From Methanotrichaceae archaeon (GTDB lineage Archaea > Halobacteriota > Methanosarcinia > Methanotrichales > Methanotrichaceae), in contig CAWEXU010000030.1 in the NCBI GenBank assembly GCA_963813075.1, positions 352,001 to 416,000 on the forward strand: a stretch of DNA of 64,000 nt. Direction: 5' to 3'. Positions 9,284-63,692 of this stretch are shown piece by piece (within the stretch, counting starts at the first letter, position 1; every line of letters begins with the position of its first letter). The position numbers and the translations under genes were made by a program. The notes under the pieces were generated by a model, which saw only the letters and a list, made by a program, of their open reading frames with translations, searched no databases and was not told where the DNA came from.

Positions 9284-10588
9284 CTAGGGCACCAGGCGCC
9301 TTCTATCCCTGGGGAAGATAACTGCATCGCGGATATTGTCCAGATTGAGCATGGTCATCACCAGCCGGGAGAGCCCCAGCCCCCAGCCAGCATGAGGCGG
9401 CATACCATAGCGGAATGCTTTGAGATAGAACTCAAAACCATCCGGGTCCAGACCCTTTTCCTTTATCCTCTCCACCAGAAGATTATAGTCGTGCACCCTC
9501 TGTGCCCCGCTGGCCAGCTCCATACGCGGGTGCATGAGATCGAATCCCCGGCAGATCTGGGGCTCGTCCTCATAGGGCAGAGTATAGTAGGGTTTGATGG
9601 ATGAGGGCCAGTCGATCAGGAAGTAATGCTCTCCTATGCTCTCTCCTAAGAATCTCTCTGTCTCGGTATCCAGGTCGTCGCCCCATTGCATCTTGGCACC
9701 CGCCTTCTCTCCCGCCAGATCCAGAGCCTCGGTATAGGTGATCCTCTTGAAAGGAAGCCGTGGCACCTCCAGCTCCAGGCCCAGGACCTCCAGCTGGCGG
9801 CGGCAGTTCTCTCTTACATAGCTATAGGCCCCGGCCACCCCCTCCTCCAGGATCTCCATCACATCCTTATCATCAGCAAAGCTGATCTCAAGGTCTATGG
9901 AGATGGCCTCATTCAGATGGCGCCTGGTATCATGCTCCTCCGCCCGGAAGATGGGGCCGATCTCATAGACCCGGTCCATGCCTGCTGCCATCAGCATCTG
10001 CTTATAAAGCTGAGGGCTCTGGTTCAAGAATGCCTCCTTCTCAAAGTAGCTGATGGGGAAGAGGTCCGTCCCTCCCTCTGTGGCCGCGGCCACTATCTTG
10101 GGAGTGAAGACCTCGACCAATCCTTTCTTAAAAAAATAATCTCGAAGGCTATGCAGGACCGCACTCTCGATCTCGAAGGCCGCCAGGACACAGGGCCTGC
10201 GAATGTCCATGAACCTGGAGTCCAGGCGGGTGTCCAGCTCACACTCCACCTTCTCAGTGGGATCAAGAGGCAATGGGACCTGGGCAGCACTTAGAACCTG
10301 AATCTCCGCGGGAAGGATCTCATACCCTCGCGGCGCCTTTGGCTCCGCCTTCACATTTCCCCGGACCATCACCACGCTCTCCCGGCTGATGGAGCGCGCC
10401 GTCTTGAAAACATCCTTTCCCAGCAGCTTTTTGACCAGGGTGATTTGAGCCATTCCCTCCCTATCCCTGAGCACCAGGAAGGCTATTCCTCCCAGATCCC
10501 TGATCTCATGGGCAAAGCCCGCCAGCGTGACCTCTTTTCCGTCCAGTTCCGCAGATATTTCGCCTGAATAATGAGTTCTGAGGATCAA
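9284..10588 (-). CDS. aspS: aspartyl-tRNA synthetase (archaeal type)
   Basis: OB-fold N-terminus; [30 protein letters not shown] and FPRD motifs. Confidence 0.97.
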
Positions 10589-10652
10589 TTCATCTCACGG
10601 CTGCGAGAATGAATTCCTGATATAAAAGCAGTCTGATCAAAACCGCTTTCAA

Positions 10653-10960
10653 GTCAACTATCGCGTCCTGAAGGGCGCGGCTTGCGACTATGCAAAAAGT
10701 CGTGTCGCGTTTGGCCGGTTGACACAAGACTAGCGAAGTCCCGAGGGATCATAGATTTCCCTCTACCCGGGCGACCTGCTTTGCATGGAGATCTTAACGC
10801 CGTTGTTGCCGAATCTTTCCATTCGGCTCAGATCATTCCCTAACAGGAATCATGCCGAGCAAAGCGATTTGTCTTTCATTCACCGTCTTACTCCGGTAGA
10901 TCCGGAGTGCCCTACCTCATAGAGGCGAAAGACTGTTGCCCGACTTCATCGGGGAACTAA
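10653..10960 (-). ncRNA. putative ~310-nt structured RNA ending in a TnpB omegaRNA-like 3' scaffold
   Basis: no ORF in the track; at least 8 nested stems; TTAAATA box about 25 nt upstream on the minus strand; 3' ~65 nt align with covariation to 30497-30570. Confidence 0.6.
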
Positions 10961-10961
10961 G

Positions 10962-10988
10962 CTTACATAGTATGTGATACTATTTAAG
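10962..10988. promoter_or_regulatory. dyad-symmetric bidirectional promoter/operator
   Basis: CTTACATAGTAT-GTG-ATACTATTTAAG, 11/12 inverted match, each arm TATA-like. Confidence 0.6.
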
Positions 10989-10992
10989 ACTT

Positions 10993-11172
10993 ATGTTCAC
11001 GAACATACAGTTGAAGGTTGAAACGAGGGATCGCCTGAAATCGATAGGTAAGAAGGGAGAAAGCTATGATGCAATCATTAATAGGATCTTGGATGAGGAA
11101 TCTTGCAAGGAGCACGATTCATCCCACCCTGAAGGGCTGGGGTCTTATCTACCCCTTGAGCCCACGAGATAG
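10993..11172 (+). CDS. small ribbon-helix-helix/antitoxin-like DNA-binding protein (59 aa)
   Basis: hand translation MFTNIQLKVETRDRLKSIGKKGESYDAIINRILDEE...; typical archaeal RHH pattern; below the ORF-track cut-off. Confidence 0.7.
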   Translation: MFTNIQLKVETRDRLKSIGKKGESYDAIINRILDEESCKEHDSSHPEGLGSYLPLEPTR

Positions 11173-11286
11173 AGATTCAGCACATATGCCGCCCGTACAG
11201 CCATCTTAAAGTTACATGCAGTAGATATATCTGCTAAGGGAAGGTATATCTGCTAAAGAAATGACAGTCTATCCAGGATTACAGCC

Positions 11287-29348: not shown

Positions 29349-30570
29349 CTCGTGGGGTCAAGGGGTAGAGAAGACCCCAGCCCTTCAGGGTGGGGATGAA
29401 TCGTGCCCCTTGCATAACCACCAAAAACTATAAATTTAATAAAATTATTAACTACCCATTAACATGTACCGCACCATCAAAATAAAGCTAGATCGATCAA
29501 ATGAACTCATCCAAACAGCTCGGCTTTGGAACACCGCCTGCCAGGATGTCATAGACTACGGCTTTGCGGCACATGATTACAACAAGACCAGACTTAACAA
29601 AGCTACATACAAAGACCTCCGAGAAAAGTATTCTACATTGCCTTCCGCCCTCATCCAAACAGCAAGGGATCAAGCCAGCGACATGCTCAAGAGGCTCAAA
29701 TTCGAGACTAAGCCTTTCAAGCATCCTTTCGGAGCAGTTCGATTCGACGTTAGGACCATGAAGGTATTCTTGGAATCGGGATACTGCAAGCTCACAACCA
29801 TTTTTGGGAGACTACGATATGACTTCCAGTTAGCAGACTATTACCAGAAATACGCTACATGGAAAGTCATGAATGCTCAACTCAAGATAACTAAGAATGC
29901 TTGCTACCTCAATGTTCAAGTAGAGCAACCCGATCCAGAAACACTTGTTGGAGATAAGAGGATCGGCGTAGATCTTGGGATCAATAACATAGCAGTATGT
30001 AGCGATAATACGTTCTGGCAATCTGGACCAGTTAAAGCTGTGAAAGGCAAATATCAATATTTGAGATCAAACTTCAGTCCAAAGGCACCCGATCAGCTAA
30101 AAGAAAGCTTCAAGAGCTTTCTGGTCGAGAGAGACGGTTTCAGAAGGACGTGAACCATCAAATCGCAAACTGGATACTATCTAAACCATATGACGTAATC
30201 GCTCTGGAAGATCTAACCCACATCAGGAACGGCAAGAAGAATAAGAAACTTGGAAAATGGAGCTTTGCAGAACTACGAAGCATCATAGAATACAAAGCGG
30301 GCGCTATCGGAAAGAAGGTAGTTGCCATAGACCCAAGATATACTTCTCGCACATGCTCCAAATGTGGATTTCAAAAGAAGGAAAACCGTAATGGTAGGAC
30401 CTTCAAATGCAAAAGCTGTGGCTTCCAGATCGATGCAGACTTGAACGCATCCAGGAACATCGCTACCTTCAGTAGAGCTGACCGTAGCAGGCTGCCTGTC
30501 AACCCGCCAATCGTAGCAGGCTAACTAACCACTAGCTACAAGCCCCATCCTTTAGGGTGGGGTAGTTGAC
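29349..30570 (+). mobile_element. IS200/IS605-family tnpB-only (IS1341-like) element
   Basis: TTAT target then LE hairpin ccccagcccttcagggtgggg; RE CAAG-ccccatcctttagggtgggg-TAGTTGAC. Confidence 0.9.
29464..30524 (+). CDS. tnpB: RNA-guided endonuclease TnpB (one A missing in the A-run at 30069-30071)
   Basis: GVDLG, ALEDL, TSRTCSKCG, FKCKSCG, DADLNA; adding one A joins the two ORFs into about 353 aa. Confidence 0.92.
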
Positions 30571-30683
30571 TCCCCTGCTTTGTATGCTTGCGGAAACCCT
30601 CAACTCTTTATACGTTGGTCTCCAAAATATACTATGACTGGCAGGGATAATTGCAGAATAAATTTCATCGGGAGGAAGAATTT

Positions 30684-60956: not shown

Positions 60957-63313
60957 TTCAGGATCTTTATTTTGCCCGGCCGGAGCTTCTCTGGGCCCTG
61001 CCACCATTAGCCGTGCTGGGGCTGGTCTACATCCACCTCCGGGCCAAAAACAAGATATTAGCCCTCTCCAGGCTGCTGATATTCTGCCTGATACTGGCCG
61101 CGGCGGCCAATCCATACTTTGTCCAGACCCAGGTCGTCCAGTCGCAAAAGCCGAGCATCACCGTCCTGGACGATAAGACCGGCTCGATGGCGGTATTCGA
61201 TCCAGATGTGGCGGCCAGAGTTGCCGATCTGACAAGCGCCTCCATCCGCTCCTTCTCCGGCGACTCGACCCCTCTGGGGGACAGGATCCTCCAGCATGCT
61301 CTTCCCGGGAGCACCATCCTCCTGGTGACGGACGGCTACAGCAATAGCGGCCGATCGCTGGCGGACGCCCTGGCCCTGGCCAGAGCCTCCAATACCACGG
61401 TCTTCGCCCTCTCCTTCGATCCGGCCAGAGCAGATGCAGGTGTAGAGATATCCGGTGCCAACACCGCCGTTTTGGGAGGGGACTATCCTTTCCGGGTGAT
61501 GGTCAGGACCTCTCTGAACTACAGCGGCCCCTTATCCGTCTATGCTGATGAGAAGCAGATCTACAGCGACCAGATCCTGGCCAATGGGAGCGATTCCATC
61601 AAGATCTCTCACTCCTTCCTGGAGACGGGAAACCATATCCTGCGAGCGGAGATCGCCCCGGATATGCAGCCTATAAACGATGTCTATCTGAAGTCGATAT
61701 ATGTCGTTCCAAAGCCTGAGGTTCTCTTCCTCTCCCCGGCCGACTCCCCCCTTGCCCAGAACGCGAGAGAGCTCTACAAATTGACTGCGGTCTCCGAGCT
61801 CCCCTCCGATCTGCGGGGCTACAAGTCCATAATCATTGATGATGCTCAATATAGCGCAAGCCTCGACCGGCTGGAGGATTATGTGCGCGAGGGAGGTGGC
61901 CTGGTGGTGGTGGGGGGCAAGGATTCCTTTGATCTGGGAGAATACCGCAACTCCACTCTGGAGAAGTTCCTTCCAGTGCAGTCCTTCCCCAGTCGTTTTG
62001 AGGGGGGCAAGACCCTCATATTCGTCCTGGACATCTCCTTCAGCCTGCTTTCTACCCAAACCAAAGACGGCACCACATTGCTCGACTATGAAAAAGCCCT
62101 GGCAGTGGAGCTACTGAAGTCCCCGCAGTTCCAGGACTATAACGTGGGACTGGTGGTCTTTGGCACCCGGGCCTACAATGTGATCGATCCCGTTCCCCTC
62201 TCCCGGAGCCAGACCGTCCTCGCAGACAGGATCACCACTCTCGCCCCCACGGGAACGGAAAACAGCTACCTGGACTCGGGACTGGAGCTGGCGCATGATA
62301 TGATCCAGGCAAGCGGAGGCGAGGGGGAGATGATCGTCCTTTCGGACGGAAACCTGCAGAACTATGAGGAGGTGGTGGCCCGATCCAAAGAACTGATCCG
62401 GGAGATGAACATCACCACCAGGCTGATTCAGGTCCAGGCCTTCCCCGGCATGACCGGGAGCTTCCCGGATATCGCCAGCAACACTGGCTCTGAGTTCACC
62501 GCTTTTGTCTATCCTGACTCTCTGACCACCATCAGTGCCCCTCTATCTGAGGAGCCCAGCCTGCCGGAGAAAAACCTCTCCACCTATGCCCTGGCCGTGG
62601 TCAATAAGAATCACTATATCACCGCCGACTTGGAGATGAACGCCACTATTACCGGCTTTAATGATGCCACACCCAAACCAGGCTCTTTGAAGCTGGTGGC
62701 ACTGGCCGATGGCAAGCCCGTTCTCACTGTATGGCGCTACGGCCTGGGCAGGGTTGCCGCCCTCACCACGGACAACGGCAACGCCTGGGCCGGTCAGCTC
62801 TACAGCAGTCCCAGCTCTCAGTTGATCTCCTCCGCAGTCAACTGGGCGGTGGGAGACCCCCGGCCGGAGACGGACAGAGTGGAGGCAGAGGATGGCTGGC
62901 AGGACAGCCCCCTGCAGATCACCATTGCCAGCACCTCCCGGCCCAGCCTCCCGGAGGCAGAGGTGGAGAAGATCGGAGACAACAGATACCTGGCGACATT
63001 CACTCCCAACAGCACTGGCATCTATTATATTGGAGATTATGGTGTGGCGGTGAACTATCCTCTGGAGTACAGATATATCGGATTCAATCCGGAGCTTTCG
63101 GGGCTAATCATGGCCAATGGGGGCAAGGTCTTCACTGAGGAGGAGGCGGCAAGGAGTCTGATAGCGGAAGCGGCCCGGACCAGCCAGAGAACTGTGCAGG
63201 AGAGGACATCCAGAAGAGATGCTCTGCTACTTTTTGCTCTCTTGATATTCCTGCTGGAGATAGTATCAAGAAAGATCAATGAGATACGCCGGCAGGGGCG
63301 GACCAAGCGCTGA
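60953..63313 (+). CDS. vWA plus glutamine-amidotransferase-like membrane protein
   Basis: L..YV..GGGL.V.GG..SF, LDIS.S, LSDG and WRYGLGRV motifs. Confidence 0.8.
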   Translation: MIQDLYFARPELLWALPPLAVLGLVYIHLRAKNKILALSRLLIFCLILAAAANPYFVQTQVVQSQKPSITVLDDKTGSMAVFDPDVAARVADLTSASIRSFSGDSTPLGDRILQHALPGSTILLVTDGYSNSGRSLADALALARASNTTVFALSFDPARADAGVEISGANTAVLGGDYPFRVMVRTSLNYSGPLSVYADEKQIYSDQILANGSDSIKISHSFLETGNHILRAEIAPDMQPINDVYLKSIYVVPKPEVLFLSPADSPLAQNARELYKLTAVSELPSDLRGYKSIIIDDAQYSASLDRLEDYVREGGGLVVVGGKDSFDLGEYRNSTLEKFLPVQSFPSRFEGGKTLIFVLDISFSLLSTQTKDGTTLLDYEKALAVELLKSPQFQDYNVGLVVFGTRAYNVIDPVPLSRSQTVLADRITTLAPTGTENSYLDSGLELAHDMIQASGGEGEMIVLSDGNLQNYEEVVARSKELIREMNITTRLIQVQAFPGMTGSFPDIASNTGSEFTAFVYPDSLTTISAPLSEEPSLPEKNLSTYALAVVNKNHYITADLEMNATITGFNDATPKPGSLKLVALADGKPVLTVWRYGLGRVAALTTDNGNAWAGQLYSSPSSQLISSAVNWAVGDPRPETDRVEAEDGWQDSPLQITIASTSRPSLPEAEVEKIGDNRYLATFTPNSTGIYYIGDYGVAVNYPLEYRYIGFNPELSGLIMANGGKVFTEEEAARSLIAEAARTSQRTVQERTSRRDALLLFALLIFLLEIVSRKINEIRRQGRTKR

Positions 63314-63383
63314 TCCTCACCATCAGATTTTAATAGCATAATCCGCTTTATTCAGGTACATTTATGGAGGTAACTGTCACCAA

Positions 63384-63692
63384 ATGAGTTCTCAAATGTG
63401 TGCCGTCTGCGGCCTTCCCCAGGAGCTATGCATCTGCGAGGAGGTTGCCAAGGAGCAGCAAAGGATTGTAGTCAAAGTCCAAAAGCGCAGGTATGGTAAA
63501 GAGGTGACAGTTATTCAGGGCATTGATCCCCATGAGATCGATCTCCAAGAGCTGTGCACCCATCTGAAGTCCAAGCTGGCCTGCGGCGGGACGGTAAAGG
63601 ACAACCTGATCGAGCTTCAGGGCAACCATATCCAGAGGATAAAGGATATCCTGGTCAAGAAGGGATTCGGCGCAGATCAGATAAGCACCTGA
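63384..63692 (+). CDS. translation initiation factor SUI1/aIF1 homolog
   Basis: [28 protein letters not shown] and IELQG.H motifs. Confidence 0.95.

Follow-up and report, generated by a model that had tools for sequence, protein, structure and literature searches.

The 64,000-nt stretch of contig CAWEXU010000030.1 of a Methanotrichaceae archaeon analysed here (the window) carries, between positions 10653 and 11168, a short IS200/IS605-type element which has neither tnpA nor tnpB. This mini-element holds a structured RNA region of ~307 nt behind a promoter box of its own and a small divergent gene for a putative ribbon-helix-helix (RHH) protein. It probably represents a long-lived, self-promoted, stand-alone omegaRNA which would be served in trans by resident TnpA and TnpB and repressed by the Arc-like RHH protein. 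Read in this way, it is a non-autonomous IS200/IS605 element of the palindrome-associated transposable element (PATE) type, and its cargo is a self-promoted guide-RNA gene and not a protein gene. The genome is represented by 31 contigs of 2.71 Mb and is 82.8% complete. An earlier note on this DNA, made from the sequence alone, had proposed the element, its RNA and its regulator. The coordinates of all features are given in Table 1.

Structure, copies and insertion sites of the element

Three copies of the element were found in the genome, one in the window (contig C30) and one each on contigs C31 and C4. The C31 copy is full length, 97% identical to the window copy and surrounded by unrelated flanks on both sides. 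The C4 copy is 92% identical and has no left end (LE). Comparison of the two full copies placed one boundary between (C/T)TAT and CTCGTGGG and the other directly after TAGTTGAC, which agrees with the 516-bp extent drawn in the earlier note. The search for further copies suggested there gave the three genomic copies and related elements across the genus. The element is oriented on the minus strand with its LE at 11168 and its right end (RE) at 10653. Subterminal hairpins, which PATEs have in place of terminal inverted repeats, are visible at both ends. No transposase gene is present inside and the RHH gene is the sole open reading frame (ORF), so the description as a tnpA-less and tnpB-less IS605-type element with ends matching resident tnpB elements stands.

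Over 66-69 nt, the LE matches that of the tnpB element at 29349 in the window and its copies on contigs C9, C5 and C27 (tnpB-1) with 94% identity, and this near identity had been noticed correctly before. The RE consists of a hairpin followed by TAGTTGAC, also as described before, but the likeness of this end to the tnpB element at 29349 needs correction. Over its last 72 nt it shares 93% identity with the RE of another tnpB family, which is intact and encodes 399 amino acids (tnpB-2; contigs C13, C31 and C4), and it is much nearer to that RE than to the one of tnpB-1. As the LE resembles one resident tnpB family and the RE module another, the element combines the ends of two families.

BLAST of the element against 60 relatives revealed related short elements within the same genus, which align with the window copy from a conserved TAGTTCCC through to the RE. 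The related elements occupy 32 distinct insertion contexts, and (T)TTAT directly precedes the LE in nearly all of them. The RE flanks of these contexts are mutually unrelated and carry no repeat of the target motif; there is no target duplication. The 32 contexts and the wide distribution without a nuclease gene, described below, show that the family is mobile, old and diversified and not a fresh deletion product.

Table 1. Features of the mini-element and of the related tnpB element in the window
Feature	Position	Strand	Remarks
Whole non-autonomous IS200/IS605-type (PATE-like) element	10653..11168	-	516 bp; three genome copies, two differing in both flanks
Candidate guide flank (TTGAAAGCGGTTTTGATCAG)	10633..10652	-	Position only; guide if the RNA is an omegaRNA
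RNA 3' core	10653..10777	-	125 nt; omegaRNA-like, possible pseudoknot
RNA 5' domain	10778..10959	-	182 nt; hairpin H1 and two multi-stem domains H2, H3; specific to these mini-elements
TATA-like box of RHH gene (TTACATAGTA)	10963..10972	+	~21-30 nt upstream of RHH ATG; read from sequence
Palindrome ATAGTAT-GTG-ATACTAT	10967..10983	.	Between RHH start and RNA start; candidate RHH operator
TATA-like box of RNA (TCTTAAATAG)	10980..10989	-	~21-30 nt upstream of conserved RNA start
RHH (Arc-like, DUF7557) gene	10993..11172	+	Antisense to element; core domain 10993-11109
Left end with subterminal hairpin (GACCCCAGCCCTTCAGGGTGGG)	11104..11168	-	94% identical to tnpB-1 LE
Target motif 5' of LE	11169..11172	-	CTAT here; TTTAT in most relatives
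tnpB-1 element	29349..30575	+	Frameshifted in window copy (two tblastn pieces); LE type as in mini-element

Conserved structure of the RNA region

The RNA region of ~307 nt runs on the minus strand from 10959 to 10653, downstream of a conserved TATA-like box, and is directed outwards across the RE. It is composed of a 5' domain and a 3' core. The parts of the 3' core are a helix GGYNG/CNRCC around GTCAAC, two inserted hairpins, H5, the RE hairpin H6 and the terminal TAGTTGAC. From seven related elements RNAalifold derived a consensus of 87 pairs, and compensatory changes were seen at 42. A covariance model (R1) was built from 181 positions of the 5' domain. In the alignment fitted by R1, which contains 58 distinct sequences, compensatory changes were present at 44 of the 54 pairs and 95.6% of the cells were paired, against 77% after shuffling (0/500 as high) and 32-48% with slid partners. 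An independent MAFFT alignment (A8) of 41 distinct full-length RNAs, for which the structure was specified by the authors, showed compensatory changes at 61 of 95 pairs, with 90.9% of the cells paired against 32-45% with slid partners. The long structured RNA of the earlier note is thus borne out by both alignments.

Helices 13, 15, 17 and 18 of the 3' core covary. Helix 13 is the GGYNG/CNRCC helix, with pair types CG/UG/UA and CG/UA/AU. The eight stems listed earlier are all part of the consensus and seven of them covary. The eighth, 10653-58/10718-23 (GTTGAC/GTCAAC, helix 16), is complementary with both strands invariant in the alignment, and is neither supported nor refuted. Pairing of GTCAAC with the terminal GTTGAC would form a possible pseudoknot right beside the flank. 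Two other pairings were considered and rejected. A hand-drawn helix, H4a (columns 237-241/257-261 of A8, a ~30-nt stretch), had 48.9% of its cells paired and is unsupported, and a kissing pairing of the H2b loop (GAUCU) with AGAUC in H3 was dropped, as by eye it is not kept in the relatives in A8.

No sizeable ORF lies within the RNA region. A tblastn search with TnpB-2 against 23 family members (word size 2, E up to 100) recovered the C-terminal tail of the protein only. This tail corresponds to the last ~11-26 codons (…ATRLFA*) and lies inside the shared RE module; elsewhere the interior had no TnpB-2 match at E<1. The earlier view that the upstream part of the interior is no relic of tnpB coding sequence is therefore upheld by this check for decayed tnpB.

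An Rfam scan, HEARO and ribozymes included, found nothing inside the element at E<=10 and nothing at the loci of two relatives at E<=1. As the resident tnpB right ends are also without an Rfam match, this negative result says little about the element. The tnpB-1 RE has a weak HEARO match, 26.9 bits against a gathering score of 83, on the opposite strand. A weak match to a C/D-box snoRNA model (sn2903) was seen at 10573-10660 on the minus strand (20.5 bits against a gathering score of 50, E 0.29). It covers the RE end, the flank and the start of the neighbouring aspS gene, touches the element only at the RE end, and is probably a chance match.

Distribution of the RNA in elements without tnpB

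In its own genome R1 (E<=10) gave three matches, all of them mini-element copies and none at tnpB 3' ends. Among the 59 genomes of the genus, matches were present in 18, with 1-3 in each. In the class sample, 19 of 74 other genomes of the same archaeal family had matches, representing 6 genera, and none of the 76 genomes from four other families had any. Another 67 loci came from metagenome contigs by motif scanning, and R1 confirmed every one of them. Four of these are cut by contig ends and were dropped, leaving 63 for analysis. In a looser motif scan of genome contigs, the matches listed were mostly chance bacterial ones, with two archaeal records bearing the RNA. Six loci with the same anatomy were found in a viral-contig collection, and two of them (same place, two samples) adjoin an oppositely oriented tnpB fragment. 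In this arrangement (L326/L328) the member follows TTTAC and not TTTAT, and it looks like a nested insertion into another element.

At none of the 32 genome loci (±1.5 kb) and at none of the 63 metagenome loci does the element include a tnpB co-oriented with the RNA. TnpB-like matches lie near three of the genome loci. In G019 a reversed tnpB element is nested downstream, in G106 the match belongs to a decayed separate element with its own RE, and on C31 a separate intact tnpB-2 copy (G000:C31:61940-63174) ends 1.18 kb upstream of the mini copy (64355-64871) in the same orientation. The sole TnpB-like match among the metagenome loci (1/63) is on the opposite strand, ~900 nt off. As the RNA neither overlaps nor directly follows tnpB at any of these loci, it belongs to a stand-alone class, which in itself has already been described.

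Other tnpB-less arrangements were also seen in these genomes. The copy L046/L063 (G019:C1:~967580-967990) has lost the RNA 3' core to the inserted reversed tnpB element and has no recognisable LE or promoter; it is a dead copy. Elements of ~390 bp, also without tnpB, form a second class and are present at G000:C6:~63104-63500 and G000:C5:~147125-147520 (L011, L012), with a relative in L028. Their RE is tnpB-2-like, but they differ from the studied element in their LE and in their long interior. This interior gives no match to R1 and has a GGTTGGGCACT-hairpin-ACAGACA motif in common with the studied RNA. A third class was found in four genomes, G074, G024, G035 and G080 (L084, L085, L086 and L088). 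It has an LE, the same RHH type and a repeat-bearing divergent promoter, combined with a different interior of ~350 nt and an RE ending GGAGTTCAC, again without tnpB. The association of the RHH gene with a long RNA thus recurs with another end type.

Divergent promoters and the RHH gene

The RNA start used here is the conserved start of the RNA region and is a predicted position. An AT-rich box at -30 to -22 of this start is kept in 49 distinct upstream regions, with an AT fraction of 0.8-0.9; examples are TTAAATAG, TTGATATAG and ATATAT. Archaeal TATA boxes lie near -26. The RNA region is represented in RNA libraries. In all four metatranscriptome runs compared, which come from four studies, contigs span the RE junction and reach more than 31 nt to either side of it (10358-10799, 10200-10836, 10200-10768 and 10454-10943). 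No contig from the RNA libraries covers 10952-10998, and the RHH region has thin contigs only. The gap at 10952-10998 fits a start near 10959, though a gap in contigs proves nothing.

The RHH regulator of the earlier note was recovered by Pfam as DUF7557 (PF24434; E 1.3e-7, 31.3 bits against a cut-off of 25), with VapB_antitox as a weak match. A TATA-like box stands so near to its ATG that a near-leaderless mRNA is implied. The last ~20 codons of the ORF are LE sequence and its stop lies in the target site. In the window the ORF has 59 amino acids owing to a 1-nt deletion in the LE hairpin, and in other copies ~45-51. With a profile of 16 relatives, matches were obtained to the RHH antitoxin MazE7 (E 0.02) and, at E 1, to the RHH domain of PutA. 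In the AlphaFold2 model of the protein (pLDDT 77) two helices follow an extended N-terminus, and the top Foldseek rows are RHH proteins (SeqA N-terminus, Reg576, NikR and ParD2; TM 0.5-0.7, all E>1). In the 38-codon core, the ratio of nonsynonymous to synonymous substitution rates was 0.07-0.30 in 16 of 21 pairs and the other five were saturated. The RHH ORF is therefore a real gene, and it is under purifying selection. Its core is present in about 30 of the 77 members with at least 200 nt of upstream sequence, as read from the hit table, and about 7 more have a truncated remnant only.

The palindrome between the two starts overlaps both divergent TATA-like boxes. In relatives with the RHH gene this position is occupied by inverted or direct repeats, and the promoter type of RHH-less members is without repeats. 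From this arrangement the RHH protein would be expected to bind the palindrome or the repeats. Distant RHH homologues (62-65% identity) were also found outside IS605 ends, beside unrelated mobile genes, in L104 (G002:C95) and L087 (G009:C382). They are divergent from other genes, and intergenic repeats are again present. The neighbour gene on G002:C95 appears by eye to be HNH/AP2-type endonuclease-like. No paper on DUF7557 was found in the literature search.

Relation to tnpB right ends and possible partners

The resident tnpB families and the mini-elements have a common right-end module composed of AGGYNG...GTCAAC-CNRCC, H5, AAGCC, the RE hairpin and TAGTTGAC. The gap between GGYNG and GTCAAC is ~4-7 nt in the tnpB elements and ~55 nt with two hairpins in the minis. 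The difference of GCGAC/GTCGC and GTAGC/GCTAC between RE types, which had been pointed out before as compensatory, is real and falls in helix 17. Nothing corresponding to the 5' domain is present at the resident tnpB 3' ends, and the domain occurs with two RE module types, tnpB-1-like and tnpB-2-like. By analogy with the ISDra2 omegaRNA, the 3' ~125 nt would be the omegaRNA core and the 181-nt 5' domain an extra module. The flank which would then act as the guide is located directly upstream of the TATA-like CTTTTATATC and the aspS start, at the place predicted earlier.

Possible protein partners are encoded elsewhere in the genome. The tnpB-1 copies on C9 and C5 have an open frame of 357 amino acids. 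All three copies of tnpB-2 have the intact 399-amino-acid ORF, with the Pfam domains OrfB_IS605 and TNB. Six intact Y1 tnpA genes (PF01797) are present. One IS200-like element with tnpA only, a frame of 152 amino acids, is located at G000:C4:312300-313200. Its end hairpins carry the loop CCCCATCCTTTAGGGTGGGG and resemble the LE and RE hairpins of tnpB-1 and the mini-elements, which makes it a candidate trans-mobiliser.

Proposed mode of action

In the proposed mechanism, the internal TATA-like promoter would drive the minus-strand RNA of ~307 nt through the RE into the flank. The 3' 125 nt of this RNA may fold as the core of the resident tnpB omegaRNA right ends, with the GGYNG/CNRCC helix, the two hairpins and possibly the GUCAAC/GUUGAC pseudoknot. 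As this core is common to the resident tnpB right ends, a resident TnpB would load the RNA in trans, and the intact 399-amino-acid family would be the most likely loader, its RE being 93% identical. After excision by TnpA, the flank-guided TnpB would cut the empty site composed of TTTAT and the flank, with the target motif before the LE serving as transposon-adjacent motif, and repair would copy the element back. A resident Y1 TnpA would move the element. In the members which carry it, the Arc-like RHH protein would bind the repeats over both divergent TATA boxes and so repress its own gene as well as the RNA. The conserved 5' domain of 181 nt may be an accessory module; stability or competition for TnpB can be guessed as its role. 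The interpretation fits the anatomy well, and its key step is the predicted loading by TnpB.

Several observations count against this interpretation. The 5' domain has no tnpB counterpart, and in ISDra2 the RNA upstream of the core scaffold is dispensable, so the TnpB model does not explain its strong conservation. The two pseudoknot strands never vary, and covariation therefore cannot test their pairing. The RNA is present at 1-3 copies per genome and in 18 of the 59 genus genomes only, and some genomes, such as G029, have right ends of the TnpB-2 type but lack the RNA. The matches of the protein to the RHH fold are individually non-significant, both in Foldseek and in sequence comparison. 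The contigs bridging the RE junction are assembled and give neither strand, ends nor single-transcript status, and DNA carry-over is possible. As aspS lies downstream in the same orientation, read-through confounds the evidence from the RNA libraries. The clean empty-site junction expected in the earlier note was not found in the 59 genus genomes. The upstream region of aspS is conserved in 56 of these 59. In the closest species-level relatives (92-94% identity), ...GTCTGATC is joined directly to TACATGCAG..., and 574 nt are missing, which equal the element with 14 nt on the RE side (10639-10652) and 44 nt on the LE side (11169-11212). The 44-mer is unique to this locus among the genome and the loci compared.

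Alternative readings

A rather unlikely alternative is that the element is a mobile structured RNA with a function independent of TnpB, to which the IS605 ends give mobility only. The 5' domain or the whole 307-nt RNA would then serve another partner, such as another effector protein, or act on its own as a ribozyme or processing element or as a regulatory RNA. This would agree with the 5' domain showing the strongest conservation and covariation of all parts, with its absence from every resident tnpB 3' end, with its joining to two RE module types and with its persistence across 6 genera of one family; the dispensability of the corresponding ISDra2 region (PMC10097598, in the part of the paper available) points the same way, as do the other tnpB-less elements in these genomes with long RNAs and a related GGGCACU-hairpin-AGAC motif. 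However, an RE follows the 5' domain at a fixed 79-126 nt in 53 of the 63 metagenome loci, the domain is continuous with the omegaRNA-like core common to tnpB elements, no Rfam family, ribozymes and HEARO included, is matched, and there is no linked candidate partner gene. That the 5' domain is an independent RNA module, with a non-TnpB partner or with a catalytic or processing activity, fused to a minimal omegaRNA core and IS605 ends, is likewise conceivable and rather unlikely.

It is quite improbable that the element is a promoter-out or regulatory cassette acting on its neighbours by read-through, here into aspS, with the RHH protein as gate and the RNA structure incidental or stabilising. 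The position of the element, 65 nt upstream of the aspS start and in the same orientation, would suit such a cassette, and the contigs of all four RNA-library runs do join the RNA region to aspS. But the insertion contexts are diverse, with varied orientations and no common neighbour, and covariation at 61 of 95 pairs is not expected of an incidental leader. In addition, aspS retains a conserved TATA region of its own, and relatives lacking the element have this region too. Derivation from a tnpB element by recent internal deletion, leaving a decaying coding interior of no function of its own, would agree with the typical resident LE and RE and with the readable last tnpB codons, but this origin is very improbable and already contradicted by the empty TnpB-2 search of the interior at E<1 apart from the tail, by a covariance model which matches no tnpB 3' end, by an RNA family in 6 genera with compensatory changes and its own promoter, and by the absence of tnpB from the element at all 95 loci.

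Comparison with known systems

Mobilised omegaRNAs which stand alone, accompanied by neither effector nor transposase, and which function in trans have been described, and their role is called unknown in the part of the text available (Altae-Tran 2021 via PMC10691335). PATEs are said in a section of a preprint to 'often encode omegaRNAs' which require TnpB in trans (Meers et al., PMC10055086). The mini-element resembles these in the subterminal hairpins of its LE and RE, in the lack of genes for a transposase or nuclease, in being mobilised to many sites after a fixed motif, and in an RNA that is predicted to end at the RE and has a core in common with the resident tnpB right ends, the partners being encoded elsewhere. 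In contrast to them, the mini-element is archaeal, and its RNA has its own conserved TATA-like promoter and a covarying 181-nt 5' domain which is absent from resident tnpB. Its lineage is old and diversified over 6 genera and not a fresh deletion product, and ~30/77 members have a putative repressor gene; its trans-activity is inferred.

Arc RHH proteins in bacterial IS605 elements bind a bidirectional promoter and repress tnpA and tnpB, according to the portion of the preprint available (Moon, Zedaveinyte, Wiegand and Sternberg; bioRxiv 10.64898/2026.09.24.754181). Here too a small, putative RHH protein is encoded within the transposon, divergent from the RNA or nuclease side, and adjoins an intergenic, apparently bidirectional promoter with repeats. 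The cases covered in that portion are bacterial and have tnpA and tnpB, whereas in the mini-element the RNA gene is the only other cargo and the promoters are of the archaeal TATA type. The Pfam family is DUF7557 here, and the protein is likened to Arc by the features of its gene.

In the ISDra2 omegaRNA, nucleotides adjacent to the guide pair ~100 nt upstream to form a pseudoknot of the 116-nt scaffold, and the RNA further 5' of the core scaffold is dispensable, as given in the accessible part of Nakagawa et al. 2023 (PMC10097598). In the mini RNA the guide would likewise follow the RE, guide-adjacent nucleotides can pair upstream, possibly as a pseudoknot, and the predicted core scaffold, which has several stems, is of similar size (~116-125 nt). 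The two RNAs are not similar in sequence, and the long-range pairing spans ~60 nt here compared with ~100 nt. In ISDra2 the RNA and the tnpB ORF overlap and the dispensable 5' part of the RNA is not conserved as structure, whereas the 5' part is the best-conserved structure in the mini RNA. With HEARO, the IscB omegaRNA (RF02033), the mini RNA has in common that it would be a large (200-300 nt) structured transposon guide RNA; no Rfam match was found within the mini-element. IscB RNAs carry the guide at the 5' end.

A literature search on Methanothrix and TnpB, judged by titles and abstract starts, returned no paper on the mini-element in Methanothrix. The novelty put forward earlier was overstated, since both stand-alone omegaRNAs acting in trans (PMC10691335, PMC10055086) and Arc repressors of IS605 elements (10.64898/2026.09.24.754181) are already published, as far as the available parts of these sources go. 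What is new is the combination of a guide-type RNA gene which is archaeal, family-wide, self-promoted and nuclease-free, a putative Arc-like repressor (~30/77) and a strongly covarying 181-nt 5' domain.

Significance

The 5' domain, called 'purpose-built' in the earlier note, remains the unexplained and interesting part. The mini-element is a tractable natural example of a probable guide-RNA gene as an evolutionary unit of its own, with a promoter, a putative repressor, an extra conserved RNA domain and a family-wide nuclease-free lineage. If TnpB does not use the RNA, the element is a new mobile RNA gene, and Arc-type control of IS605 elements would extend to archaea and to RNA-only cargo. 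If the 5' domain is independent, such elements would be autonomous 'RNA-gene transposons' with Arc-type control of their own and would live as hyperparasites on the TnpA/TnpB system, and they could stand midway between the guide RNAs of transposons and guide loci which are encoded separately and regulated. If TnpB does use the RNA, the family shows how a guide RNA can parasitise a transposon nuclease and how separate regulated guide loci originate, a step towards CRISPR-like organisation, and its 5' domain could reveal what makes a trans-acting guide competitive or stable.

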